A DNA stretch of 11,529 nt from the IMG/VR virus record IMGVR_UViG_2534681833_000007, positions 1 through 11,529 of that record, one strand, 5' to 3'. The translations under genes and the position numbers were made by a program. This document shows positions 1 to 11,529 of the stretch, in pieces (within the stretch, counting starts at the first letter, position 1; each line of letters opens with the position of its first letter). The stretch is from a virus (lineage: Duplodnaviria; Heunggongvirae; Uroviricota; Caudoviricetes). The notes under the pieces were generated by a model that worked only from the letters and a program-made list of their open reading frames with translations, ran no database searches and was not told where the DNA came from.

Positions 1-904
1 ACAGCGCCCATTTGTCCACATCCGCCGCACCAAGACGTTTACCCATGCCGTAGCGCGGGTGGGTCAGCATATCCCACAGACACCAGGCCATGTTATTGCT
101 GTATGCCGGTTTAAACGTTCCGTCCCAGATACCGCTGTATTGCCGCGTCTGCGGGTTATAGTTCGACGGCACCTGCAGAATACGCCCGCGCAGATGATAA
201 TTACGGCTCACCTGCTGGCTGCCGAACTGCTCCGAATCCACCTGCACGCCGACCAGTGCCGTATTCGGGTAGCACTGTTTCACATCGATGATTTCGGTGT
301 ATGACGACCAGAGCGTTTTGTTCTGCAGCTGGTCTGTGGTGCTGTCCGGCGTCATCCTGCGCATCCGGATATTAAACGGGCGCGGCGGCAGGTTATCCAC
401 CACCACCGAGGCCAGATACTGCGAGGTGGTTTTGCCCTTAATGGTGATGTCTTTTTCCGTCACCCAGCCACCGTTACGTTGTATCTGAACCAGCAGGCGG
501 ACTTCCGATGGATTCCTGTCCCCCTTTGAGGTGGTTTCCACCAGTGCCTGCACACCGAAGGTAAAGCGCAGACGGTCGATGTTTGCCGACGTGATGGTGC
601 GGGTGATCGGCGTGTCATATTTCACTTCCGTACCCAGCACCGTCTCGGAGCCGGAGGATTCAAATCCCTCCGGCGGTGTCTGCTCCTGCTCGCCTGCCCG
701 GAACACCACCGTGACGCCGGAGATATTGGTATTCCCCTCGCTGTCCAGCACCGGCGTACTGTTCAGCAGCACGCTTTTTAATCCATCCACCGGACCTTCA
801 ACCGGACCTTCGCTGATGGCATCAATCACACTCAGCAACTGCGTGGACTTCAGGTTGTCCTTCGCTTCGCGCGGGGTATGCCCCTTACTGCTGCCTTTAC
901 CCAT
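1..904 (-). CDS. J: Host specificity / central tail fibre protein J (lambda gpJ-like), N-terminal 301 codons; 3' end lies beyond window start
   Basis: Minus-strand ATG at 904..902 (plus-strand 'cat'), translation MGKGSSKGHTPREAKDNLKSTQLLSVIDAISEGPVEGPVDGLKS... stays open to position 1 and matches my recollection of the lambda gpJ N-terminus almost residue for residue. GAGGA immediately upstream of the ATG. Not in the ORF track because no stop falls inside the window. Confidence 0.9.
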   Translation of the reverse strand, partial: MGKGSSKGHTPREAKDNLKSTQLLSVIDAISEGPVEGPVDGLKSVLLNSTPVLDSEGNTNISGVTVVFRAGEQEQTPPEGFESSGSETVLGTEVKYDTPITRTITSANIDRLRFTFGVQALVETTSKGDRNPSEVRLLVQIQRNGGWVTEKDITIKGKTTSQYLASVVVDNLPPRPFNIRMRRMTPDSTTDQLQNKTLWSSYTEIIDVKQCYPNTALVGVQVDSEQFGSQQVSRNYHLRGRILQVPSNYNPQTRQYSGIWDGTFKPAYSNNMAWCLWDMLTHPRYGMGKRLGAADVDKWAL

Positions 905-925
905 TCCTCACGCTCCATAAACGAC

Positions 926-946
926 AAAACCGCCCGGAGGCGGTTT
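926..946 (-). terminator. Terminator-like hairpin in the I-J intergenic gap (8-bp stem AAACCGCC/GGCGGTTT, 4-nt loop, then U-rich UUUUGUCGUUU on the minus-strand RNA)
   Basis: Perfect inverted repeat 927-934 / 939-946 seen directly in the sequence, between the I stop (965-967) and the J start (904). Function not demonstrated. Confidence 0.35.
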
Positions 947-964
947 CACATAAAACATTTTTCA

Positions 965-1612
965 TCAGCGACCAATCACCACAACCTGACCACCATCACC
1001 TTCATCTGCCGTGCTGATCTCCTGAGATACCACCCGCGACCCCACACGCATTTCACCGTACAGAACGGGCAGAACATTGCCCTGGGCAACCATGTTATCC
1101 AGTGACGAGAAATACGTGTTCTGTTTGCCGTTATCTGTACTGGCTGCCGTGGGCGTCCTGGCTTTCGGTGCCAGCATCTGCGCCACACCACCCAGGATCA
1201 TACTGGCCCCTGCTGCATACATACCCGATACAGCCGCGGCCCCTAGCCAGCCCACAGGGTTCCACCATGCCACCGCAATCAGCGCCGCACCCAGCACCGC
1301 CTGAAACACACCGCCACTTTTGGCCCCCTCCAGACGCGGAACGATGTGGATCACGGCACCATTTGCCAGCGGCTCATTAAGACGGGCAGACAATTCGGTT
1401 TCACCTGCATCACGCCCGGCAATCCGTACCTGATACCAGCCGTCACTCAGTTTCTGACGAAACGCCGGGATCTGCATGGCCAGCGCCCGGATGGCTTCGG
1501 CCCCCGTTTTCACACGAAGGTCGATGCGGCGGCCAAATCGTTGTAAATTCCCGTAAAGGCAGATGCGTGCCATGCCCGGTGACGCCAGAGGGAGTGTGTG
1601 CGTCGCTGCCAT
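965..1612 (-). CDS. I: Tail assembly protein I (lambda gpI-like)
   Basis: 215-aa ORF starting MAATHTLPLASPGMARICLYG... and ending ...GDGGQVVVIGR, matching recalled lambda gpI. ATG at 1612. Overlaps the 3' end of K by about 100 nt, as in lambda. Confidence 0.9.
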   Translation of the reverse strand: MAATHTLPLASPGMARICLYGNLQRFGRRIDLRVKTGAEAIRALAMQIPAFRQKLSDGWYQVRIAGRDAGETELSARLNEPLANGAVIHIVPRLEGAKSGGVFQAVLGAALIAVAWWNPVGWLGAAAVSGMYAAGASMILGGVAQMLAPKARTPTAASTDNGKQNTYFSSLDNMVAQGNVLPVLYGEMRVGSRVVSQEISTADEGDGGQVVVIGR

Positions 1613-2253
1613 TTGTCGGTATACCTCTCTCGTTTGCTCAGTTGTTCAGGAATATGGTGCAGCAGCTCGCCGTCGCCGCAGTAAATGGCGGCATGATTCG
1701 GCACCGATGAACCAAAACAGCACAGCAGCACATCGCCCGGCTGCGCCTCTGTCAGTGCGACACGGTAAAAACTAGTCGCCTCCATATTGTCAAGATAGAG
1801 ATTCTGGCCGTTACGCCACCAGTCATCCCCGCGATAAAAATCCGGCATCTCAATTTCCGCCAGATGGTATGCATCCCGGAACAGCGTGTAACAGTCCGTC
1901 ACCCCGTGCTCAAAGCGCCGCCCGGTAAGATGTGGCACACAGCGGAACTTGTGAATCGCCCCCCGGCAGACCAGCCACCACGGCAAATCACTCTGCACCT
2001 GCAGCCGCCTGTCGACCTCACTCAGCCAGGGCAGACCACCGGGGTGGCTGTGGACCAGTGCCACAACCTCCCCCTGCATCTCTGCCTGCAGCCAGTCCTC
2101 CGGCGACATCCGGAAATACGCCTCCGGCTCACCGGAGATATTCACGCAGGGAAAATATCTGTCCCCCTCCGGCGTTCTCACCACGAAGCCGCACGACTCC
2201 GCTGGCGCACATGGCCGGGCGTGCGCCAGAATCGCTGATTCTGTCTCTGTCAT
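1510..2253 (-). CDS. K: Tail tip assembly protein K (lambda gpK-like; MPN/JAMM plus NlpC/P60 domains)
   Basis: In-frame ATG at 2253, 5 nt after the L stop, gives 247 aa beginning MTETESAILAHARPCAPAESCGF... JAMM signature HSHPGGLPWLSEVD present; later Cys/His consistent with NlpC/P60. The track ORF (start 2328) begins at a GTG inside L and is probably too long; an internal ATG at 2109 would give the shorter 199-aa form. Confidence 0.85.
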   Translation of the reverse strand: MTETESAILAHARPCAPAESCGFVVRTPEGDRYFPCVNISGEPEAYFRMSPEDWLQAEMQGEVVALVHSHPGGLPWLSEVDRRLQVQSDLPWWLVCRGAIHKFRCVPHLTGRRFEHGVTDCYTLFRDAYHLAEIEMPDFYRGDDWWRNGQNLYLDNMEATSFYRVALTEAQPGDVLLCCFGSSVPNHAAIYCGDGELLHHIPEQLSKRERYTDKWQRRTHSLWRHRAWHASAFTGIYNDLAAASTFV

Positions 2254-2257
2254 GGGT

Positions 2258-2956
2258 TTACTGCGAAAGTTTGTTAATGGAAAGGTAGCCGCCAAAATTG
2301 CCGACGTTATTGCGGAACTTGCAACCACTCAGGCATTTGCTGCATTTATCCTTCGTGATATCGGACGTTGGCTGGTCATATTCATCCGCGACCGCCGGGC
2401 CATCATAACCGCACTCATCGCCGCGGTAGATCCAGGTGCAGGTGTTGGCCAGCATGATGCGCCCCGGAAAAACAGCACCATCCGTTTCCGTCGGTGTGGA
2501 CAGCACAAAAGAGGCACTGACCGCGCTCAGTTCGCTGCACTGTTCGATGCGCCAGCGGCTGATCACCTCCTGCTCCGGATCGGCGTCACTGTTTCCGTTG
2601 ACGAAGTTCACCGCATCCAGAAAACGGGCGTAAACCTTACGCCGGACCACCGTTCCGCCGACCAGACTCTGCAGATCTTCCGCCATCCCGGTGACCATGC
2701 CGTACAGATTAGAGACTTTAAGCGTTGGCCTTGCACTGGCTCCTTTGCCGTTCATCTCAAATCCGCTTCCCTGAATGGGATAAGCCTGATACTGCCGCCC
2801 CTGCCAGGTGACTGGTTCACCTTTTTCGTTCTGCTCATTACAGAAGAAATAACGATCTCCGCCGACTTCTGTCAGATCAATTTCCCAGAGCACGACCAGC
2901 GCGGATTGCTCCGTTTTAGTGCACTCATTGAGTGTTTCCTGCTGTATATCCTGCAT
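2258..2956 (-). CDS. L: Minor tail protein L (lambda gpL-like)
   Basis: 232-aa ORF MQDIQQETLNECTKTEQSALVVLWEIDLTEVGG...FGGYLSINKLSQ, near-identical to recalled lambda gpL. Its ATG (2956..2954) overlaps the M stop as TGATG. Confidence 0.92.
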   Translation of the reverse strand: MQDIQQETLNECTKTEQSALVVLWEIDLTEVGGDRYFFCNEQNEKGEPVTWQGRQYQAYPIQGSGFEMNGKGASARPTLKVSNLYGMVTGMAEDLQSLVGGTVVRRKVYARFLDAVNFVNGNSDADPEQEVISRWRIEQCSELSAVSASFVLSTPTETDGAVFPGRIMLANTCTWIYRGDECGYDGPAVADEYDQPTSDITKDKCSKCLSGCKFRNNVGNFGGYLSINKLSQ

Positions 2957-3312
2957 CAGTGAGTGACCTCTTCAAAGGTACAGTTAAAATCGGTATACAT
3001 GGTATTATCCGAAATGCTCCACTCCCTGCAGACAACCCGGACAGTCCTGTTGTGTTTTGGCGGACGCCACAAAAAAGCACGAATCCCGGCATGACGGGAT
3101 AAAAAACTGTCCAGCGCGGCACGGGAATATTCATCTGTGACACGAAATACCGGTTTAAACGTTTTCAGATCCGCATTCAGACCACCAGCCCGTCGCTGTT
3201 CATATCCGTCACCAAACTTTACCGTAATAACTGATGGCTTTCGTGTCGTCTCCATCCCCTCACGGGGGATCCAGTTAAAAACTTCAGGCTCAGGCACTGT
3301 ACAATCCTCCAT
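2956..3312 (-). CDS. M: Minor tail protein M (divergent lambda gpM homologue)
   Basis: Conserved core ...KFGDGY...AGLNA.LKT...SFL...FLW.PP... aligns with recalled lambda gpM at roughly 35-40 percent identity. Start placed at ATG 3312 (118 aa) because the lambda N-terminus (KTFRWKVKPGMD) aligns with EVFNWIPREGME upstream of the alternative ATG at 3255. The track start at 3342 is a TTG. Confidence 0.75.
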   Translation of the reverse strand: MEDCTVPEPEVFNWIPREGMETTRKPSVITVKFGDGYEQRRAGGLNADLKTFKPVFRVTDEYSRAALDSFLSRHAGIRAFLWRPPKHNRTVRVVCREWSISDNTMYTDFNCTFEEVTH

Positions 3313-6300
3313 CCCGACGCGATGACTGCATAATTGACACAACCCTGCTGTCGATCAGATCCACCAGTCCCCTGGCTGAGCGCGCATCTATCTCGCCATT
3401 GCTCCCTTGATTCTGAATGCTGATGTGATACACGGGAGAATAAACAAATCCACCGCCACCATTCACATTTCCAATGGCCCTGACCCCAAGAGAGCCGTCC
3501 GCTGCCCGTGTCAGTGGCATGATTGCTTCAGGCCCGGCCTCGCCCATCAACCCGGCACCTTTCGCAAAAGCAAAATACGTCGGTGTATCCACAATAGTGT
3601 TACTGTAAGCACTCAGATTTGCCGATGTGTAAACACCACCTTTTGCGTTTGCCACTGCCCCCGAAATCCATCCGCCGACCGTACCAAGCCACCCTCCGGC
3701 ACCGGAGAGTGATTTCAGTCCGTTAACAATGGCTGCATTCATCAGAATTTTTGAAACTTCCCGGAGAACTGAACTCCCCCAGTTCCTCCAGTCCACAACA
3801 TTCCCGGCCAGTGCATCGGAAATATTTGATACCAGCCCGTCCATCGTGGAAACGACAGCATCTGCCGCCTGTGAAGCATAATCGGTGGCACTGTCTGCCC
3901 AGTTGGTCAGTCCCTCCTGGAGTCCGGCATTCCAGTTATTACGTAAAGCATCGGCCTTTGCATAATAATCCTGCTGATCGCTGAGACGCTCTTCCAGATA
4001 TTTTTTATTCAGTTCTTTCTCCTGTTTCCACAGAGCTTCTTCAATTTCTCCGGCCTGATACTGTCTCAGCAGCTCGTTATTTTTCTGCTCAAACGCCTGC
4101 CGGATACTCCACATTTCCTGGAGTCGTTCACGCATCCGTGAGCCTTCACCATATCCCAGCAACTGCGCTTCGTCAGATGCCCGGGCACTGGCATTACTGT
4201 CCGCCAGACTGCTCTCATACGCAGCAAGCTGCTCACGAATCTTTTTCTGGTCGATGAGTGCTGCATTCTGCAAAAGCGTTTTTTTCTGCGCTTCTGACAG
4301 GGTTGATAATTCGCCCTGACTGACCTGATATTTCATCTTAGCCAGTTCAGTATTCTGCCCTGCCAGTGCTATTTGTTCTTTTTGCTGTTTAATCAGCCGT
4401 TTATAAATATCTTCTGTTTTTTCCGCTTCGGTCTTTTTATGCGCTTTGGGTTTATTTGCCTGGTTATTTCGCCAGGCATCCAGTGAGTTATTGATATAAT
4501 TCTGTCTGGCTGTCTGATACGCCTCTCCCACAAAGCCGAGATCATCCGCAGCATAACCCAGGCGGGCACGCTCACGGGCTTCCCCCTTCAGGCGGGACAG
4601 AGCCAGTTCGCGCTCACTGTTATTCAGTGCGGCCTGCTGTTTATCATCCAGGGTTGCCTGTGGTAGCCGTAACGGTACATTCACCAGCCCCTGTCGCTGC
4701 TGAAGTAATTCATTACCGAGCCCGAGAAGGCGATTAAACTCGGTATGCTGCCCATTCATGATCAACAGGGACTGATACGCTTTGTTTTGTTCCGCGGCCT
4801 GTTGACGGATCAACGCCACCCGTCGCTCCTCCAGCCCGGCAAGCACATCCTGAATGGATTGCGCTTTGCCCTGCATTTGTGTGAGACGGGACTGTTCAAC
4901 TGCCAGTTGATTTGTTGCTTCTGCAAGCCCTTCTGTGACAGTTTTTACCGACGTCATGTGGTTAATCATAAAACCGTTATCGGTTGTCCAGCCCGGGTTT
5001 GCCAGCACATACTGATAGCCAGCAATTTTTTCCTGTAAGGATTTAATCTTACTTTTCTGCTCGTCAATTAACCTGTTTTGCTCATCAAGTGCCTGCCGCG
5101 TCTTTTCCTCATTATCTGACGCTTCAGGAAGCGACATTGCCGACGTTTTCTGGCGAATTTCGTCGATTGTTGCGGCATACTGGCGTGCAGATTCTCTGGC
5201 CTGCTCCTGATTCTGATACATCGTGTACCAGGCCGTCGCCCCCAGCATGACGAGTCCCGGCACACCACCAACCAACCCCAGCGCACCACTTAACAGACGA
5301 CTCCCCACTGACGTGACAGTATTCAGCGTTGTCTGTGCCGCTGTTCTGGCCGCAATATTACGGGTAAGTGACGCCTGGGCAGCTGTCAGCTTCGCTTCTG
5401 CTGCGGCCTGCCTTTCGGTACCGCGAGCAGCAACAACCGCCTGTTGCGCACGATAAACCGCCGCACGCGCCCTGGCGGTTGCTATCTGTGTCCCCCGAAG
5501 TTGCGCTTCAGCAAGAGCCACTTCTTTTCTGGCTGCAGTAATTAATCCGGCAGTTGCAGATCCAGCAGACGACGCCATATTGCCAAAATATCGGGCTACC
5601 CCGACGGCAACCAGTGCGCCAGCTGCAGCAGCCACGGTATCCATATTGTCTGCAACACCATTCAACACCCCGGTGAGTGTCTTTGTCACTCCGCTTGCCT
5701 CGTTCGCACCACCAACCCAGGCCATAAAGGCGTTTTCAACTTTGGTTGCAGAGGATGAAACAGTATCAGGCATTGCTGCATATTCATCACGCAACGCCCC
5801 AAGCTGACTAATCAGTGCAGGAACAACCTTATCGGCGGTCAGTTTTCCGTTATCCGCCATGGCCTTCAGATCCTTACGGGCAACACCCATTCCCGCAGCC
5901 AGCGCACGAATAACACGATCGCCGTTCTCATTCACAGAGTTAAATTCTTCACCGCGCAGCACTCCCTGCGCCAGTGCCTGACTGAACTGCGTGATCACCG
6001 AACTGGCTTCTGCTGTACTGGCACCGGATAATTTCAGGCCCGTAGAGATCGCCTCGGTGACTTTCAGTACCTCCTCAGAACTGTAGCCATACTCCCGCAT
6101 GGAAGCTGCAGAGCGGGCAAAAAGGCTGGCGTTATCAGAAAACGCCGTTCCCGTTCTCTGGCTGATTGCCATTAATTCACGTTGTGATACCTGAAAATCA
6201 TCACTGGACTGTGAAGCCTGCTTCAGACGGGCATTTACTGAATTCCACTCATCGGCGAGAGAAATAAGATGACCGGTAGCAAAAGCTCCGGCAAATGCCC

Positions 6301-6523
6301 CCGCCATATTCAGTGCCGAAGATTTAGCTATATTTATCTGATCCGTCACTTCTGCCAGTGCACGCCGCATTTCACGGGATGCAGCAGCGGACTGCCGGCC
6401 TCCGTTCTGCATGGTACGGTAGTAATCCTGCCCCATACGCGAAGCCCGGGAGATCTCTGACTGGAATGACCGGGAATTTGCCGAGATTTTAATAATCAGT
6501 TCACGTAATGTCGCCACACTCAT
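3290..6523 (-). CDS. Tail tape measure protein (1077 aa)
   Basis: Very long ORF placed between the chaperone pair and M; Ala/Gln-rich helical central region typical of tape measure proteins, Gly-rich hydrophobic C-terminal segment. ATG at 6523 preceded by GGAGA. Longer than lambda gpH (853 aa as I recall) and not obviously co-linear with it. Confidence 0.9.
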   Translation of the reverse strand: MSVATLRELIIKISANSRSFQSEISRASRMGQDYYRTMQNGGRQSAAASREMRRALAEVTDQINIAKSSALNMAGAFAGAFATGHLISLADEWNSVNARLKQASQSSDDFQVSQRELMAISQRTGTAFSDNASLFARSAASMREYGYSSEEVLKVTEAISTGLKLSGASTAEASSVITQFSQALAQGVLRGEEFNSVNENGDRVIRALAAGMGVARKDLKAMADNGKLTADKVVPALISQLGALRDEYAAMPDTVSSSATKVENAFMAWVGGANEASGVTKTLTGVLNGVADNMDTVAAAAGALVAVGVARYFGNMASSAGSATAGLITAARKEVALAEAQLRGTQIATARARAAVYRAQQAVVAARGTERQAAAEAKLTAAQASLTRNIAARTAAQTTLNTVTSVGSRLLSGALGLVGGVPGLVMLGATAWYTMYQNQEQARESARQYAATIDEIRQKTSAMSLPEASDNEEKTRQALDEQNRLIDEQKSKIKSLQEKIAGYQYVLANPGWTTDNGFMINHMTSVKTVTEGLAEATNQLAVEQSRLTQMQGKAQSIQDVLAGLEERRVALIRQQAAEQNKAYQSLLIMNGQHTEFNRLLGLGNELLQQRQGLVNVPLRLPQATLDDKQQAALNNSERELALSRLKGEARERARLGYAADDLGFVGEAYQTARQNYINNSLDAWRNNQANKPKAHKKTEAEKTEDIYKRLIKQQKEQIALAGQNTELAKMKYQVSQGELSTLSEAQKKTLLQNAALIDQKKIREQLAAYESSLADSNASARASDEAQLLGYGEGSRMRERLQEMWSIRQAFEQKNNELLRQYQAGEIEEALWKQEKELNKKYLEERLSDQQDYYAKADALRNNWNAGLQEGLTNWADSATDYASQAADAVVSTMDGLVSNISDALAGNVVDWRNWGSSVLREVSKILMNAAIVNGLKSLSGAGGWLGTVGGWISGAVANAKGGVYTSANLSAYSNTIVDTPTYFAFAKGAGLMGEAGPEAIMPLTRAADGSLGVRAIGNVNGGGGFVYSPVYHISIQNQGSNGEIDARSARGLVDLIDSRVVSIMQSSRRDGGLYSA

Positions 6524-6533
6524 TCTCCGGACG

Positions 6534-6554
6534 AAAAAAACCGCCGAAGCGGTT
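6534..6554 (-). terminator. Terminator-like hairpin just upstream of the tape measure start (stem AACCGC/GCGGUU, UUCG loop, then U5 on the minus-strand RNA)
   Basis: Inverted repeat 6539-6544 / 6549-6554 with loop 6545-6548 and a 7-A run at 6534-6540 on the plus strand, lying in the 40-nt gap between the T stop (6563) and the tape measure ATG (6523). Confidence 0.3.
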
Positions 6555-6562
6555 ATGTTGAC

Positions 6563-7236
6563 TCACTGAGACACTATTAAAAGCGCGTTTTCCAGTCCGG
6601 CAAATGGATCTGAGACGCCTTCTGTCTGCTCTTGTTCCCACTGAAGAAGCGCATCATTCAGTGGGACTTTGACACCCTGCGCACCGTAAACCGCAGAAAC
6701 TATCTGGGCAGCCCGGATATCAGCCCGCTCGTCACCCAGCGGGCTGAACCTGTCAAATTCTGCCCACATCATGATTTCTGATGCGGACATTTCCCGGCGT
6801 AACTCTGACAATGTGCGCCCCATCCTGAGCGCCAGCATCATCAGAAAACGCATCCCCGGAAGCGCTACTTTTTTTTAACCTCGCCGGCATCACTGATCAG
6901 TTCCAGAGACTGCCGAAGAAGCCGCGCATGCACCGGGCCATACACGGCAATCACCTGTTCACGATCATCCTCTGAAAATACAGGTTGCAGTCCGGTATCA
7001 CACAGAACATCAATGAATAGTTCAACATCTGCCTCCAGATTTCGGCGGGCGCGCTCCGCAACGGATAACGGTGTCTCATCATCTTTTGCTTTAACGATCT
7101 CCTGCCAGCGCAACCAGGCTTCTGCAGAAGGTTCCCGTAATACAACCGTTGCCCCTTCCCATTCAGGCACATCAACAGTTTTATGGCGAAACCCCGACAT
7201 CGTTGCCAGTGCCAGATTGCGGATATTTTTAGTCAT
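6563..7236 (-). CDS. Tail assembly chaperone G-T fusion, made by -1 programmed ribosomal frameshift near the 3' end of G
   Basis: The 6563-6853 ORF (T part) is in the -1 frame relative to G (codon phase checked: G codons start at coordinate 1 mod 3, T codons at 2 mod 3). G ends ...GAG GTT AAA AAA AAG TAG, so a slip on A AAA AAG reads on as ...KK-VALPG-MRFLMMLAL... This is the conserved G/GT arrangement found immediately upstream of tape measure genes. Confidence 0.75.
6865..7236 (-). CDS. Tail assembly chaperone (lambda gpG-equivalent)
   Basis: ORF directly upstream of the tape measure gene, ending in the slippery site. Start chosen at ATG 7236 (GAGGAT about 7 nt upstream); an alternative ATG at 7251 overlaps the major tail protein stop (TAATG) and would add MRIDV. 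Confidence 0.8.
   Translation of the reverse strand: MTKNIRNLALATMSGFRHKTVDVPEWEGATVVLREPSAEAWLRWQEIVKAKDDETPLSVAERARRNLEADVELFIDVLCDTGLQPVFSEDDREQVIAVYGPVHARLLRQSLELISDAGEVKKK
6868..6874 (-). promoter_or_regulatory. -1 frameshift slippery heptamer A AAA AAG (G to G-T)
   Basis: Plus-strand C + T8 run at 6868-6876; on the minus strand the heptamer is in X XXY YYZ phase with the G frame, and the G stop TAG follows immediately. Confidence 0.7.
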
Positions 7237-7250
7237 CACATCTATCCTCA

Positions 7251-7955
7251 TTAACTGACGGTAACAGTGCAGGAAGTGGAGGTCACCTTGTTAACAGGGC
7301 TTGCTGAATCAGAAATCTCGCAGGTATACGCACCGGCATCACCTGATGCTGCTGATGCCTTACTGAATGTTGCCGCCGTCTGTCCGGAAACAGGAGAACT
7401 ACCTTTCTTCCAGACATAAGAATAAGGCGGCACACCACCGGCAGCCTCAACCACCATTTCGAGTTTCGCTCCGGCAGAAACCTGCAGCGTGCTGTTTAAA
7501 TCGACCTTCACTTTCAGCGGCTCTGTCGTCAGCACAGGTTTACCTTTCAGGCGCAGGGAAAACGTTGCAGCCACAACACCATTAGTTCCTGCAGACCAGG
7601 TATGCTGACGCACCTCTGCCATAAAGGTAAATCCGTTGCCTGACGGAAAAATAACTTTAAAGCCATACGTGGTGTCATTGTCATAGGCACTGCGCAACGC
7701 GTTCTGGGCAGCATTGAGGTAAAAGTTGCCTGACATGGAAATCTCTGACGCGGCACCAAGGCCGTTAATATTTTCCTGCTCAACAGAACACAGCGTGGTG
7801 ACATCAATATCCTGCTTTTGTCCTGCGGTAAACTGCACCTCTTTGATTGTACAGCTCAGGCCAAGATAGCTGGCAGAATCCAGGGTTTCTGCTGTTACCG
7901 GTGCAGACGAAATCATAATTTTCGTCAGTTGCGAACGCTCAAAATTAGAGGACAT
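7251..7955 (-). CDS. Major tail (tube) protein with C-terminal Ig-like domain
   Basis: Sits in the position of lambda V (after the terminator-like gene, before the chaperone pair). 234 aa from ATG 7955 with AGGAGA 6 nt upstream. C-terminal ~90 aa (...GGVPPYSYVWKKGSS...GAYTCEISD...CTVTVS) has an Ig-fold-like pattern. Not recognisably lambda gpV by sequence. The track start at 8006 reads through the hairpin and U-tract and is probably wrong. Confidence 0.8.
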   Translation of the reverse strand: MSSNFERSQLTKIMISSAPVTAETLDSASYLGLSCTIKEVQFTAGQKQDIDVTTLCSVEQENINGLGAASEISMSGNFYLNAAQNALRSAYDNDTTYGFKVIFPSGNGFTFMAEVRQHTWSAGTNGVVAATFSLRLKGKPVLTTEPLKVKVDLNSTLQVSAGAKLEMVVEAAGGVPPYSYVWKKGSSPVSGQTAATFSKASAASGDAGAYTCEISDSASPVNKVTSTSCTVTVS

Positions 7956-7969
7956 ACTCGTCTCCTGAA

Positions 7970-7994
7970 AATAAAAAACCCGCCAGCGGCGGGT
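7970..7994 (-). terminator. Intrinsic-terminator-like hairpin upstream of the major tail protein gene (stem CCCGCC/GGCGGG, then UUUUUUAUUUU on the minus-strand RNA)
   Basis: All-GC 6-bp stem 7979-7984 / 7988-7993 (one further A-U pair 7978/7994), 3-nt loop, followed on the minus strand by a U-run (plus-strand A-run 7971-7978). Lies between the upstream gene stop (8015) and the RBS/ATG at 7955. Confidence 0.4.
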
Positions 7995-8014
7995 GGGTAA
8001 AATCATTAACGACC

Positions 8015-8359
8015 TCAGGCTATTACCTGAAATTCAAGCGTGGCTCTGCTCAGACGGGAATCAGGATCATAACCCTGAGTTTTAGAAATAACGGAGGGTG
8101 CAAGTTGCCTTACCGCATCAAGCGCCTGCTCACGGATATCATCTGCGTCATCAGGTACTGTTGCCCAGACATCGATCTGCACGGTAATTCTGGATTCAGC
8201 CTGACCATCAAGCACATCAGACGCAGTGTCAGACACCACAGAAAATACCAGCCATGGCGGAGATACCGCAGGCTTTCCCTCCGTCAGCGGGACCACATAA
8301 GGATAAACCTGTCCTCCGGCCAGTTGAGACAGCAGGGAATACAGTGTGGTCTCTCTCAT
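8015..8359 (-). CDS. Tail terminator / tail-component protein (lambda U-position; family not identified from sequence)
   Basis: 114-aa ORF. Its ATG at 8359 overlaps the upstream stop (ATGA). Called by position between the gp10-like gene and the major tail protein gene. Confidence 0.7.
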   Translation of the reverse strand: MRETTLYSLLSQLAGGQVYPYVVPLTEGKPAVSPPWLVFSVVSDTASDVLDGQAESRITVQIDVWATVPDDADDIREQALDAVRQLAPSVISKTQGYDPDSRLSRATLEFQVIA

Positions 8360-8802
8360 TTACTTAAGACCTCATCAATAGCCTGATTCATTCGCTGTAT
8401 GGCAATCTGTGCTGCCAGTTCCTCTGTCGTATCGAAAGCCGGGCGAATGAACGGATGCGCGGGCATGTTTATCGTTCCCAGCTCCACAAAGCGCCAGTAA
8501 AACGCATTTCGGGGATCACTGGCTTTCATGCTGTTATCACTGTTTCCGGTTCGCAGGTTCCGTCCACGAATGTGGACACCCGAGATAATTTCCCCCCGAC
8601 GCTTTGAACGCTGAGTGAGAACAACCACATTTTTCTTCAGTTTCCCGGTTCGCTCCGGCGCACGTTCAACAACTGCATCCCGCATAACTTCAGCACCGGC
8701 ACGGGTGGCATCGCGCAGTACCTTATTGTTTTCTGCCCTGCTGAGCGTCTCCAGATCCCGTGCAATATCCGCCAGACCTGAAAAATCAAGACTGAAATCC
8801 AT
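8356..8802 (-). CDS. Tail completion / head-tail joining protein, HK97 gp10-like (lambda Z-position)
   Basis: 148 aa from ATG 8802 (AAGGGGA about 7 nt upstream; the track start at 8805 is a GTG). Contains ...MPAHPFIRPAFD..., which I associate with the HK97 gp10 family. Its ATG overlaps the stop of the truncated upstream remnant (TGATG). Confidence 0.75.
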   Translation of the reverse strand: MDFSLDFSGLADIARDLETLSRAENNKVLRDATRAGAEVMRDAVVERAPERTGKLKKNVVVLTQRSKRRGEIISGVHIRGRNLRTGNSDNSMKASDPRNAFYWRFVELGTINMPAHPFIRPAFDTTEELAAQIAIQRMNQAIDEVLSK

Positions 8803-8922
8803 CACACATTCCCCTTCTGAGAACAGAGTATCTCAAGCCGTGTGGCACGAGCATCCGGTATCGGCGGACCGTCTATACTCAGAATCGCGCCTTTGAATGC
8901 ACCAGTCAGCACTTTCAGACAT
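8802..8922 (-). pseudogene. 3' remnant (39 codons plus stop) of a phage morphogenesis gene whose 5' part is replaced by IS2
   Basis: Minus-strand frame is open from the IS2 boundary (8922) to a TGA at 8804..8802, translating CLKVLTGAFKGAILSIDGPPIPDARATRLEILCSQKGNV*. The stop overlaps the next gene's ATG in the coupled fashion seen for the rest of the operon. No start codon or N-terminal part exists on this side of IS2. Confidence 0.5.
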
Positions 8923-8963
8923 TAGACTGGCCCCCTGAATCTCCAGACAACCAATATCACTTA
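8923..8963 (+). repeat. IS2 left terminal inverted repeat (IRL)
   Basis: Imperfect inverted repeat with 10213-10253; shared blocks GCCCC...TCCAGACA...TATCACTTA seen directly. Confidence 0.8.
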
Positions 8964-9013
8964 TTTAAGTGATAGTCTTAATACTAGTTTTTAGACTAGT
9001 CATTGGAGAGCAG

Positions 9014-9379
9014 ATGATTGATGTCTTAGGACCGGAGAAACGCAGACGGCGTACTACACAGGAAAAGATCGCTATTGTTCAGCAGAGTTTTGAACCGGGA
9101 ATGACAGTCTCCCTTGTTGCCCGGCAACACGGTGTGGCAGCCAGCCAGTTATTTCTCTGGCGCAAGCAATACCAGGAGGGAAGTCTTACTGCTGTGGCCG
9201 CAGGAGAACAGGTCGTTCCTGCCTCTGAACTTGCTGCCGCCATGAAGCAGATTAAAGAACTCCAGCGCCTGCTCGGCAAAAAAACGATGGAAAATGAACT
9301 CCTTAAAGAAGCCGTTGAATATGGGCGTGCAAAAAAGTGGATAGCGCACGCGCCCTTATTGCCCGGGGATGGGGAGTAA
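9014..9379 (+). CDS. insC: IS2 OrfA (InsC), HTH transposase-regulator component
   Basis: ATG 9014 with GGAGAG upstream; 121 aa [56 protein letters not shown]... matches recalled IS2 InsC. The track start at 8969 is an upstream extension. Confidence 0.92.
9331..9337 (+). promoter_or_regulatory. IS2 orfA-orfB -1 frameshift heptamer A AAA AAG
   Basis: AAAAAAG at 9331-9337 is in X XXY YYZ phase with orfA (codons GCA AAA AAG); orfB is in the -1 frame and begins at this point. Confidence 0.7.
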
Positions 9380-10242
9380 GCTTAGTCAGCCGTTGTCTCC
9401 GGGTGTCGCGTGCGCAGTTGCACGTCATTCTCAGACGAACCGATGACTGGAAAGATGGTCGCCGCAGCCGTCACTCAGATGATACGGATGTGCTTCTCCG
9501 TATACACCATGTTATCGGAGAGCTGCCCACATATGGTTATCGTCGGGTATGGGCGCTGCTTCGCAGACAGGCCGAACTTGATGGTATGCCTGCGATCAAT
9601 GCCAAACGTATTTACCGGATCATGCGCCAGAATGCGCTGTTGCTTGAGCGAAAACCCGCTGTACCGCCATCGAAACGGGCACATACCGGCAGAGTGGCTG
9701 TGAAAGAAAGTAATCAGCGATGGTGCTCTGACGGGTTCGAGTTCCGCTGTGATAACGGAGAAAAACTGCGAGTCACGTTCGCGCTGGACTGCTGTGACCG
9801 TGAGGCACTGCACTGGGCGGTCACTACGGGCGGCTTCAACAGTGAAACAGTACAGGACGTCATGCTGGGAGCGGTGGAACGCCGTTTCGGCAACGAGCTT
9901 CCGGCGTCTCCAGTAGAGTGGCTGACGGATAATGGTTCATGCTACCGGGCTAATGAAACACGGCAGTTTGCCCGGATGTTGGGGCTTGAACCGAAGAACA
10001 CGGCGGTGCGGAGTCCGGAGAGTAACGGCATAGCAGAGAGCTTCGTGAAAACGATAAAGCGTGACTACATCAGTGTCATGCCCAAACCAGACGGGTTAAC
10101 GGCAGCAAAGAACCTTGCAGAGGCATTCGAGCATTATAACGAATGGCATCCGCATAGTGCACTGGGTTATCGCTCGCCACGGGAATATCTACGGCAGCAA
10201 GCCAGTAATGGGTTAAGTGATAACAGGTGTCTGGAAATATAG
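9337..10242 (+). CDS. insD: IS2 OrfB (InsD), DDE transposase catalytic part; normally expressed as an OrfAB fusion by -1 frameshift
   Basis: 301-aa ORF (GTG at 9337) ...[29 protein letters not shown]...[18 protein letters not shown]..., matching recalled IS2 InsD closely; appears full length. Confidence 0.9.
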
Positions 10243-10253
10243 GGGCAAATCCA
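10213..10253 (+). repeat. IS2 right terminal inverted repeat (IRR)
   Basis: The reverse complement TGGATTTGCCCCTATATTTCCAGACACCTGTTATCACTTAA pairs with IRL. Confidence 0.8.
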
Positions 10254-10651
10254 GGCAAATCCTTTACGTTACTCTCTGATGACTTCTTATATTTATAATA
10301 CCAATCAGACAGCCTTATCCCATCGGTGATATCAGTCTCCTCCTCGCCAGGAACGGGCTGACTCACTGTAACCACCTCCGAAAACAACTCTGCAATTATC
10401 AGAACGCTAGTTTTCCCCTTGTCTCACGAAAGTCCTCCCTCCTTTATCGCGCGTGCGTGCGGAAGCATCTTTTCGCAACAACCACCCGGGATTCCGCTAC
10501 GGCTCTGCCATCGCAATCCCCCCGTTTATCTCCGGACAGCCACATTCCCGATTATTTTTTACGTTTCTCCCCGGTTGTTATGCCAGTGAAGGTGGCGCGC
10601 TGTTTTCATGACCACACCGGCTGGTTTAACAACATCCGGAGGAACATTCTC

Positions 10652-10858
10652 ATGGCTACCCCTGTTTCGCTGATGGATGACCAGATGGTCGACATGGCGT
10701 TTATCACTCAACTTACCGGCTTAACCGATAAGTGGTTTTACAAACTCATCAAAGATGGGGGCTTTCCTGCCCCCATCAAAATGGGGCGCAGCTCCCGCTG
10801 GCTGAAAAGTGAAGTGGAAGCCTGGCTGCAGGCGCGTATTGCACAGCCCCGTCCGTAA
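10652..10858 (+). CDS. AlpA-family phage/island regulatory protein (small HTH, excisionase-like)
   Basis: ATG 10652 with GGAGG 8 nt upstream; 68 aa MATPVSLMDDQMVDMAFITQLTGLTDKWFYKLIKDGGFPAPIKMGRSSRWLKSEVEAWLQARIAQPRP. Size and motif resemble AlpA-like proteins of P4/CP4-57-type integrative elements. The track ORF from 10457 is an upstream extension with no RBS. Confidence 0.75.
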   Translation: MATPVSLMDDQMVDMAFITQLTGLTDKWFYKLIKDGGFPAPIKMGRSSRWLKSEVEAWLQARIAQPRP

Positions 10859-10952
10859 TTTCTGACCGTTATCCGTTCACCCGCAGCAGACGTAATCTCC
10901 GGCCTGCCGGCGGCATTCTGCTGCCTGTTATATCCCCGTGAGGAATATGAAA

Positions 10953-11529
10953 ATGAAACAACAGTATCAGACCCGCTACGAATGGCTCCACGAAAGCTAC
11001 CAGAAATGGCTGACCGGCTTCACCCGGCACGCCGTATCCTGGGGCGTGTGTCATCCGAATATCTACTACTTCCATAATCTGACGCCCGGTTGGGTGTCAT
11101 TCAATGGTGAAAAACCGGAGATTGCCATCGTACCCCAGAGCCTGCACCGGCTGATTTATGGCCCTGACAAACGGGCCACGCCGCCCCTGGATGATGATCT
11201 GATAGTGAATTTATGCACCAGTGAACATCTGCTGGTTCATCATCCGATGCTGGAAGGCATTCTCCTGTCTGAATGTGAACGTCTGAGGCAGCGTTCTCTG
11301 GCAAATAAACTGATCAGCCTCTTCCGTCAGTTTGGTGGCACGGAGTTGCGCCTCAAACTGGTCTGGCTTTGCTGGCTTGATTTAATGACCGGAAACAGCC
11401 TTGACGACTGGACAGAGAATCTGAAACGGAAATCAGAAAAAGAGCTGGAGGAATGGATCATCAACCGTCAGAAGCAGAGCGCAGCACTGACGGATCTGAT
11501 GGATCAGTACGTGCTCCTGTCATACCGCA
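10953..11529 (+). CDS. Hypothetical protein, 5' part only (at least 192 codons); continues beyond window end
   Basis: Open frame with no stop from ATG 10947 / ATG 10953 to the window end; GAGGA at 10940-10944 gives better spacing to 10953. Translation MK(MK)QQYQTRYEWLHESYQKWLTGFTRHAVSWGVCHPNIYYFHNL... Not in the ORF track because it has no stop in the window. I do not recognise the family. Confidence 0.55.
   Translation, partial: MKQQYQTRYEWLHESYQKWLTGFTRHAVSWGVCHPNIYYFHNLTPGWVSFNGEKPEIAIVPQSLHRLIYGPDKRATPPLDDDLIVNLCTSEHLLVHHPMLEGILLSECERLRQRSLANKLISLFRQFGGTELRLKLVWLCWLDLMTGNSLDDWTENLKRKSEKELEEWIINRQKQSAALTDLMDQYVLLSYR

Follow-up and report, generated by a model that had tools for sequence, protein, structure and literature searches.

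Introduction

In Hfr formation, IS2 and IS3 copies of the F plasmid recombine with chromosomal copies, which gives two direct ISs carrying one 'foreign' flank each. More generally, an IS devoid of target duplication is commonly explained by IS–IS recombination or by an adjacent deletion (PMC11708052), and in the long-term evolution experiment IS–IS recombination lies behind most of the large rearrangements of Escherichia coli (PMC4173774). IS2, which transposes by copy-out-paste-in and forms (IS2)2 dimers (PMC3299598, PMC3219604, PMC9333248), has imperfect terminal inverted repeats of 41/42 bp (PMC3299598), and the active IR–IR junction of its dimers can yield deletions, inversions and cointegrates (PMC9333248), in principle with split duplications. 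IR-targeted insertion is known for IS30 and IS911, dual target specificity being documented, within the IS3 family, for IS911 only (PMC9333248).

The locus considered here is an IS2 copy found in a stretch of 11,529 nucleotides (positions 1 to 11,529 of IMG/VR record IMGVR_UViG_2534681833_000007, Caudoviricetes), the whole of which is called the window. Like the duplication-less ISs described previously (PMC4173774, PMC11708052), this is an intact element whose two target flanks are traceable to separate insertions and are non-contiguous in relatives, several identical IS copies being present per genome. In these studies, parental and product genomes were at hand and the type of event was known, whereas a single junction is visible here. 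The size, the repeats, the A6G motif and the 5-bp duplications of sister copies are alike in the dimer-forming IS2 system, but the window shows neither an IR–IR junction nor a tandem dimer, so that any dimer route is one that we infer. In comparison with Hfr formation, the part of the integrating replicon would be played by a phage genome, and neither a second IS2 nor a head-side junction is observed. As in IS30 and IS911, the island insertion adjoins a native 9-nt copy of the IRR tip, but a single site is concerned, the mimic lies in tandem with IRR and there is no IRL–IRR junction. Globally, the comparison of the two flanks with their counterparts in other genomes argues strongly that this IS2 is a hybrid-flank copy marking the breakpoint of an IS2-mediated rearrangement, a reading that we regard as probable.

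A complete IS2 flanked by two different pentamers

The features of the window are listed in Table 1. The element begins with TAGACTGGCCCCC (IRL) and finishes with GGGGCAAATCCA (IRR), and both termini are common to 15 other IS2 copies, which fixes its ends. Its size and its repeats, the type of its OrfA and OrfB proteins and its frameshift site are those expected of IS2 (PMC3299598 for the repeats), and identical copies in relatives carry the annotation 'programmed frameshift'. Within the lineage, this IS2 variant occupies 7–20 places per genome, with copies 100% identical to that of the window. The 5-bp duplication is the only IS2 character lacking, and its absence reflects the history of this copy and not the nature of the element.

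Table 1. Coordinates of the features of the window, from the prophage side to the island side
Position	Strand	Feature	Evidence and remarks
1..8359	-	Lambda-like tail module of an HK97-head-type prophage	gpJ (partial, cut by window start), I, K, L, M, tape measure protein, T, G, major tail protein, gp17
8356..8805	-	HK97-gp10-family gene, intact	NCBIfam TIGR01725, 85.7 bits, cut-off 30.8
8802..8922	-	3' remnant of phage head-closure gene	39 codons (8805-8921) and stop (8802-8804); first 73 codons missing
8918..8922	.	GACAT	Target pentamer (left copy) of an IS2 that inserted into the phage gene; partner copy missing
8923..10253	+	Complete IS2 (IS3 family)	1331 bp; 100% identical to multi-copy elements of CV839-06, ETEC1731 and ETEC1747
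about 8923-8964		IRL of IS2	Inverted arm 8932-8963
9014..9379	+	IS2 orfA (TnpA/InsC, 121 aa)	NCBIfam NF006928, IS2 repressor TnpA, 276.4 bits, curated cut-off 229
9331..9337	+	A6G slippery heptamer, -1 frameshift site for OrfAB transposase	Read from sequence
9337..10242	+	IS2 orfB (TnpB/InsD, 301 aa)	NCBIfam NF006918, IS2 transposase TnpB, 709.7 bits, curated cut-off 597
about 10213-10253		IRR of IS2	Inverted arm 10214-10245
10254..10258	.	GGCAA	Right copy of the duplication from the ancestral island IS2 insertion; partner copy missing here
10254..10262	+	GGCAAATCC	Native island sequence matching 9 nt of the IS2 IRR tip (GGCAAATCCA)
10259..10651	+	Native alpA upstream region of a CP4-57-like island	99.6-99.8% identity to IS-free and IS-bearing island alleles
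10652..10858	+	AlpA-family helix-turn-helix gene, 68 aa	Pfam PF05930 Phage_AlpA on identical protein
10953..11529	+	Hypothetical gene of the island (200 aa in relatives), truncated at window end	No NCBIfam match

The pentamers that adjoin the element, GACAT (left) and GGCAA (right), do not constitute a duplication, and no shift of the boundaries yields one. By way of control, a perfect 5-bp duplication flanks IS2 at 13 of the 14 other distinct loci sampled, as well as the copy of locus L004 (see below). Finished genomes nevertheless include IS2 copies without duplication, such as that of locus L045.

The first-pass annotation, which had placed the IS2 ends at 8923 and 10253 and denied any duplication between the flanking pentamers, proved right on both counts, a perfect 5-bp repeat having been looked for and none existing. 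It had also counted 39 surviving codons in the gene located upstream of the gp10-like gene and considered the right side as AlpA island DNA instead of the missing half of this phage gene. Both statements hold, as detailed in the next two sections.

The left junction: an IS2 target in a phage head-closure gene

The names given to the genes of the tail module are based on annotations and Pfam families. The prophage side is 99.88% identical, over 8922 bp (11 differences), to an intact prophage of ETEC1747, and its tail genes are without decay. The translation of the truncated gene adjoining IS2 corresponds to residues 74–112 of the 112-aa protein of the IS-free allele (L002), and the corresponding gene of sister prophages belongs to the Pfam family Phage_HCP. 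The head-closure gene is therefore destroyed in this copy of the prophage. A full head module is found in every sister contig that encodes an identical tape measure protein; that of ETEC1747 (portal, protease, capsid and terminase) is located around 2,103,500–2,107,500. The prophage family is often present in multiple copies and in several orientations per genome (for example, two copies in UMNK88).

In the IS-free phage allele (L002, ETEC1747), the site reads TTTCAGACAT/GAAGTTG. In HCP5S3_I2 (L004), an independent IS2 in the opposite orientation occupies the same pentamer (GACAT/IS2/GACAT), and both halves of the gene are kept. The comparison of these filled and empty alleles shows that IS2 does use the site of the left junction as a target. 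An IS2 insertion at another place of the same region was also encountered (L001), between gp17 and gp10, with TACAG as duplication.

The right junction: an older insertion in an AlpA island

In the pig ETEC strains ETEC1747 and ETEC1731 and in AIGA01, the island site is filled and flanked by a perfect duplication (GGCAA/IS2/GGCAA), whereas the empty site of strain 7/2 (L005) carries a single GGCAA. Three pig ETEC genomes match the right junction at 100% over 300 bp; judging from these alleles, this junction is that of an older IS2 insertion in the island. The sequence beyond it is native island DNA. The AlpA-family gene is annotated in relatives as a helix-turn-helix regulator, and its neighbours there are the 200-aa hypothetical gene, YfjI/DUF3987, a GTPase and Ag43, as in a CP4-57-like AlpA island. 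The island DNA located to the left of IS2 is IS-rich accessory DNA. The IS2 copies recovered upstream of alpA all have the same orientation, a uniformity that was dismissed because the query used (the IRR end and its flank) recovers only that orientation.

Each flank of the window can thus be assigned to a site of its own, filled at L003, L014 and L017 and empty at L005 for GGCAA, filled at L004 and empty at L002 for GACAT. According to this comparison of filled and empty sites, the mismatched flanks derive from two separate IS2 insertion sites.

Linkage of the two flanks in other genomes

Among 5,426 complete E. coli genomes, not one contains the whole window or its left junction. The order phage–IS2–alpA was found neither in these genomes and in plasmids, searched with the window and both junctions, nor by exact junction patterns in GTDB genome contigs, metagenome contigs or viral contigs, nor did exact-protein look-ups with the tape measure protein, AlpA and gp10 reveal this arrangement. 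The reading of the first-pass annotation implied that the two flanks are not neighbours in IS-free relatives, and no genome searched has both flanks contiguous. In ETEC1747, the closest relative, they match at 99.9% and 99.8% and are located at 2,107,512 and 4,546,488, i.e. 2.44 Mb apart in the same orientation, the two arcs between them measuring 2.44 and 2.80 Mb. In ETEC1731, the surroundings of the island IS2 are devoid of prophages up to a distance of 49 kb.

The reciprocal junction, in which the IRR of IS2 would adjoin GACAT and the head side, is absent from the complete E. coli genomes, metagenome contigs and viral contigs searched. A candidate for it (match H151) consists of two pieces joined around an IS that has a different position, and four matches that seemed to cover positions 1–10253 (H1–H4) correspond to the phage joined with IS2 at other positions, as in L001. 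Nor was the postulated precursor found in the genomes searched; it would carry, at GACAT, a simple IS2 insertion oriented as in the window.

Proposed origin of the junction

The scenario that best accounts for these data begins with an IS2 insertion upstream of alpA, in the CP4-57-like island of an ancestor of a pig ETEC lineage, with duplication of GGCAA. This step is shown by the filled and empty island alleles, and the right junction of the island insertion is kept base for base in the window. Transposition chemistry would then have joined an IS2 end to GACAT in the head-closure gene of the prophage, a pentamer that the allele of HCP5S3_I2 shows to be a real target. Finally, both junctions would have come to share one IS2, most likely by RecA-type homologous recombination between the island IS2 and a newer identical copy in the phage gene. 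Alternatively, the last two steps may be one, the phage target having been attacked by an IS dimer located at the island, in which abutted IS2 ends form an active junction. As lineage copies are 100% identical, the crossover point inside IS2 is invisible and a SNP-mosaic test is impossible.

In the product, the tail operon of the phage adjoins the part of the island that carries alpA, and the head-closure gene has lost its first 73 codons. The head and packaging genes would be either deleted or located beside a reciprocal copy (island-left GGCAA / IS2 / GACAT head side). The junctions expected for the latter are ...CTTACTCTGGCAA/TAGACTGG... and ...GCAAATCCA/GACATGAAGTTGCTG..., the island-left side ending with ...CTTACTCTGGCAA and the head side being GACATGAAGTTGCTG.

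Alternative explanations

What happened to the remainder of the prophage depends on the type of rearrangement. A deletion, resulting from recombination between two direct IS2 copies or from an adjacent deletion promoted by one IS2, would have eliminated not only the phage genes for head, packaging and early functions but also the left part of the island, leaving a tail-only remnant. It accounts for the hybrid flanks, would affect on the island side IS-rich accessory DNA that could be lost, and belongs to the type of IS-mediated rearrangement most often seen in the long-term evolution experiment (82/110 events; PMC4173774). However, given the position and the common orientation of the loci in ETEC1747, a simple deletion would remove 2.80 Mb and be lethal, a short local deletion finds no support in ETEC1731, where the island IS2 has no neighbouring prophage, and the tail genes, nearly identical to those of an intact prophage, are undecayed. 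Deletion is thus possible but rather doubtful. From the first-pass annotation, which proposed an IS2-mediated deletion or recombination leaving a tail-only prophage, the origin of the flanks from two IS2 sites is retained; neither the deletion nor the tail-only state is established, the latter because the window ends inside gpJ and the rest of the prophage is out of view. Conversely, nothing may have been lost if the window displays one of two reciprocal junctions, generated by inversion or translocation between IS2 copies or by the fusion of a phage circle into the island IS2. In that case, the prophage would be complete, though in two parts or in permuted order, with an IS2 copy at each side. 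This predicts the same hybrid flanks, is consistent with undecayed tail genes and agrees with the several copies and orientations of the prophage family per genome; we regard it, tentatively, as a possible outcome. Fusion, whether through an IS2-dimer cointegrate or through homologous recombination of the kind that forms Hfr strains, would remove the geometric problem raised by the flank positions in ETEC1747. The cointegrate would moreover create both junctions in one step and need no earlier IS2 in the phage; for copy-out-paste-in ISs, cointegrates and inversions arising from IS dimers are documented, and IS2 is listed as dimer-forming (PMC9333248). Nevertheless, the reciprocal junction is missing from all the genomes and contigs searched for it, fusion requires that the phage be present as a circle, excised or replicating, and that the cell survive, and the orientation of the flanks relative to ETEC1747 does not fit an inversion. 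Since an ETEC1747-like chromosome fits neither a viable simple deletion nor an inversion, a different backbone or a route by fusion or duplication is needed. The specific proposal that a whole phage genome fused into the island through IS2 is, in itself, unlikely; its product may be a permuted prophage between two direct IS2 copies inside the CP4-57-like island.

The junction could also be an assembly chimera, in which two ordinary IS2 insertions, flanked by GACAT and GGCAA duplications respectively, had their wrong flanks joined through the identical 1.3-kb repeat. The numerous identical IS2 copies per genome offer no internal anchor for the join, the event that the junction implies would not be viable on the complete backbone closest to it, and the arrangement is absent from all other assemblies searched. 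On the other hand, short-read assemblers usually break contigs at such repeats rather than crossing them, IS2 without duplication exists in finished genomes (L045), and the left junction would still be real and require that the head-closure gene had received an IS2 insertion not seen elsewhere, so that we consider a chimera improbable. A single ordinary IS2 insertion, with a duplication eroded by point mutations or with wrongly called ends, has practically no chance of being correct. GACAT and GGCAA do agree at 3/5 positions, but this agreement is a coincidence because each pentamer is native to its own IS-free locus. Indeed, both pentamers and their surroundings belong to two loci with intact empty sites (L002, L005), the left and right flanks are unrelated sequences, and the 15 other copies exclude mis-called ends. 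Decayed duplication and shifted boundary were therefore ruled out by the empty sites, and the rearrangement between two IS2 sites is retained as the preferred reading.

Significance and use of the target sites

This locus belongs to an ordinary and well-known type of breakpoint, that of IS-mediated rearrangements. It is of use for annotation and quality control, mismatched IS flanks marking a rearrangement or a possible mis-join, and it has the advantage that both parental insertion sites can be exactly named. It also warns that, as long as the rest of the genome is out of view, the prophage should not be declared a tail-only remnant. A mis-join made by the assembler across the repeat would be indistinguishable from a rearrangement.

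Beyond these points, the locus brings no new biology except a small natural data set on the re-use of IS2 targets. The nonamer GGCAAATCC, which follows the IRR in the window, also occurs in the IS-free allele L005; it is therefore native target DNA and not an IS2 tip. The chance of a match of at least 9 nt to the IRR tip is about 0.27% per 55-nt site and about 3% across the 13 sites sampled. That IS2 targets IR-like or structurally special sequences is, on the whole, not very probable. The mimic of the IRR tip and the repeated use of sites hint, however, at a natural IS2 targeting such as that known for IS911 and IS30.

The IS2 element and its flanking DNA

The window carries a complete IS2 (see table), whose left inverted repeat starts TAGACTGGCCCCC and whose right inverted repeat ends GGGGCAAATCCA. 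Several complete genomes have copies that are 100% identical to it, among them those of pig ETEC CV839-06, ETEC1731 and ETEC1747, and in these three each chromosome has 7–20 places matching IS2. The window element is an IS2 by all defining features save the duplication: the flanking pentamers are GACAT on the left and GGCAA on the right.

Features of the window and their positions
Feature	Position	Remarks
Lambda-like tail operon, partial gpJ to gp17, minus strand	Left of IS2	
HK97-gp10-family gene	Left of IS2, minus strand, between gp17 and the head-closure gene remnant	TIGR01725
Head-closure gene remnant	8805-8921, stop codon 8802-8804, minus strand	Last 39 of 112 codons only
Complete IS2	8923-10253	1331 bp
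IS2 OrfA	9014-9379	NCBIfam IS2 TnpA, 276 bits (curated cut-off 229)
A6G slippery site	9331-9337	In IS2, -1 frameshift site for the OrfAB transposase
IS2 OrfB	9337-10242	NCBIfam IS2 TnpB, 710 bits (curated cut-off 597)
Region upstream of alpA, holding IS2 in other genomes	10254-10651	Loci L006, L034, L035, L036, L037, L038, L014/L017
AlpA-family gene	10652-10858	Right of IS2; preceded by its own native upstream region

A perfect 5-bp duplication flanks IS2 at 13 of the 14 other distinct readable loci, and the phage site of HCP5S3_I2 (L004) makes one more. IS2 copies without duplication nevertheless exist, in a minority. A second example of an IS2 with hybrid flanks (CCTGT left, GATAA right), 100% identical and devoid of duplication, lies in the finished genome of strain 2018-11-1BCC (L045, NZ_AP027902 1,471,820-1,473,150). 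Since sister copies have a duplication, its absence belongs to the history of the window copy and not to IS2.

Two simpler readings of the flanks were rejected. GACAT and GGCAA match at three of five positions, an agreement that is coincidental because each pentamer is native to its own locus. The sequence GGCAAATCC that follows the element resembles the IS2 tip, yet it is native target DNA in the IS-free island of strain 7/2 (L005), and therefore the IS2 boundary cannot be moved.

Origin of the two flanks

In ETEC1747 (L003), ETEC1731 (L017) and one draft genome (L014), the same IS2 occupies the position that it has in the window, and island DNA borders it left and right. These sites read ...CTTACTCT GGCAA, IS2, GGCAA ATCCTTTACG..., a perfect duplication, while the island site of strain 7/2 is empty and has one GGCAA. 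These filled and empty sites show that the IRR-GGCAA junction of the window comes from an older, separate insertion, of which it is the right half. The 300 bp spanning this junction are 100% identical in the three pig ETEC genomes. Right of IS2, the AlpA-family gene precedes the neighbouring gene of a CP4-57-like island.

On the other side, window 1-8922 is 99.88% identical (11 differences) to the ETEC1747 prophage (L002), which reads ...TTTCAGACAT|GAAGTTGCTG... without interruption and has an intact head-closure gene; in the window copy this gene is destroyed. In HCP5S3_I2 (L004, about 4146-5485), an independent IS2 lies at the very same pentamer in the opposite orientation, flanked by a perfect GACAT duplication, and neither half of the head-closure gene is lost. 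Owing to this empty site and this filled site, the GACAT-IRL junction of the window is a genuine transposase product. The first-pass annotation was right in every detail of what it described (IS2 ends, mismatched pentamers, 39-codon remnant, AlpA-island right flank), and the IS2-mediated recombination that it claimed is supported, each flank being traced to its own IS2 insertion site.

Mechanism and nature of the rearrangement

IS ends bearing halves of two duplications are the textbook sign either of two IS copies having recombined or of an intramolecular event brought about by transposase (PMC11708052), and IS-IS recombination was involved in most large rearrangements that arose in the long-term evolution experiment (PMC4173774). 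The configuration is an IS-mediated rearrangement breakpoint, an already-known kind of feature in which nothing is surprising to a specialist; its practical value is that both parental sites are located to the base and that the join is flagged for a read check. The most likely route is homologous recombination between the island IS2 copy and a newer phage IS2 copy. IS2 itself transposes by a two-step copy-out-paste-in mechanism, via a figure-of-eight and a minicircle, in which the donor stays put and simple insertions result (PMC3299598). The alternative is a one-step event driven by an IS2 dimer: IS dimers, of which there are reports for IS2, contain an end-to-end junction that is active and that in IS30 leads to deletions, inversions and cointegrates (PMC9333248). 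Both routes give the same junction sequence, from which recombination and dimer cannot be separated, and the crossover point is invisible because the IS2 copies are identical.

The event is recent, as the near-identity of the tail genes with those of an intact prophage shows. On the ETEC1747 backbone, where the junction points are 2,107,512 and 4,546,488 and the two loci are oriented alike with respect to the window, the join corresponds to a 2.80 Mb deletion or a 2.44 Mb duplication, not to an inversion. No prophage was found within 49 kb left of the island IS2 of ETEC1731, and the window stops within gpJ. Given the ETEC1747 geometry and the lack of a prophage over these 49 kb of ETEC1731, either the source genome carries the prophage at another location (the family is frequently present in several copies, two of them in UMNK88), or the island IS2 took up a circular copy of the phage by fusion, or there is a mis-join of the contig across the IS2 repeat. 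The reciprocal junction (IS2 IRR, GACAT head side) is absent from the E. coli genomes, viral contigs and metagenome contigs searched, which means only that the source genome lies outside those collections. A tail-only remnant produced by deletion, as initially proposed, is one among several possible outcomes.

Target choice of IS2

The ancestral island target (window 10254-10262; L005 4001-4009) reads GGCAAATCC, whose 9 nt match the IS2 right-end tip GGCAAATCCA exactly, so that the island insertion left the tip tandemly repeated. A match of at least 9 nt to either IS2 tip has a chance of about 0.27% per 55-nt site and of about 3% over 13 sampled sites; the tip copy may be a sign that IS2 chooses IR-like targets, which IS911 and IS30 are known to do. 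Furthermore, CP4-57-like islands of different E. coli lineages carry full-length IS2 at a minimum of seven positions within approximately 430 bp of DNA upstream of alpA, and every one of these positions has its own perfect 5-bp duplication (GGCAA, ACGTT, CTCTC, ACCGG, CTGCT, ACGCC, GATCT). All these copies have one orientation, the only one that the query could find; this uniformity is an artefact of the search and does not speak for an orientation bias. The phage pentamer GACAT (window 8918-8922) was used twice, independently, and looks like a site-specific IS2 hot spot within the head-closure gene. Together, the repeated IS2 insertion upstream of alpA, the tip mimic and the GACAT reuse, a small sample, fit the preference for curved targets reported for IS2 (PMC3299598) and hint at IR-like targeting comparable to that of IS911 and IS30 (PMC9333248).

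Variation in the island IS2 and in the prophage

The island IS2 of ETEC1747 (L003 2134-4969) is split by an IS66-family element of approximately 2.8 kb; the insertion point corresponds to window 9223-9231 and is duplicated over 8-9 bp (CTCTGAAC[T]). In that lineage, IS2 was therefore inserted first and IS66 second.

Compared with the ETEC1747 prophage (L002 about 10870-11235), the tail assembly chaperone gene of the window (6865-7251) contains an additional T at 6869; it is intact in the window (128 aa) and annotated as a pseudogene in ETEC1747. The adjoining T gene (6563-6853) suggests that the two may form a G/GT frameshift pair of the usual kind. Of the 11 differences from this prophage, seven fall within the first 110 bases (window 1-110), in the 3' part of gpJ, a clustering that suggests a putative recombination boundary in the host-range region. 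A sister prophage of UMNK88 (L032, CP002729, 2,349,937-2,362,383) displays the opposite kind of loss: it has the head genes, gp10 and gp17, and in place of the block from the major tail gene to J it carries a short ORF and tail-fibre genes, after which chromosomal genes begin.
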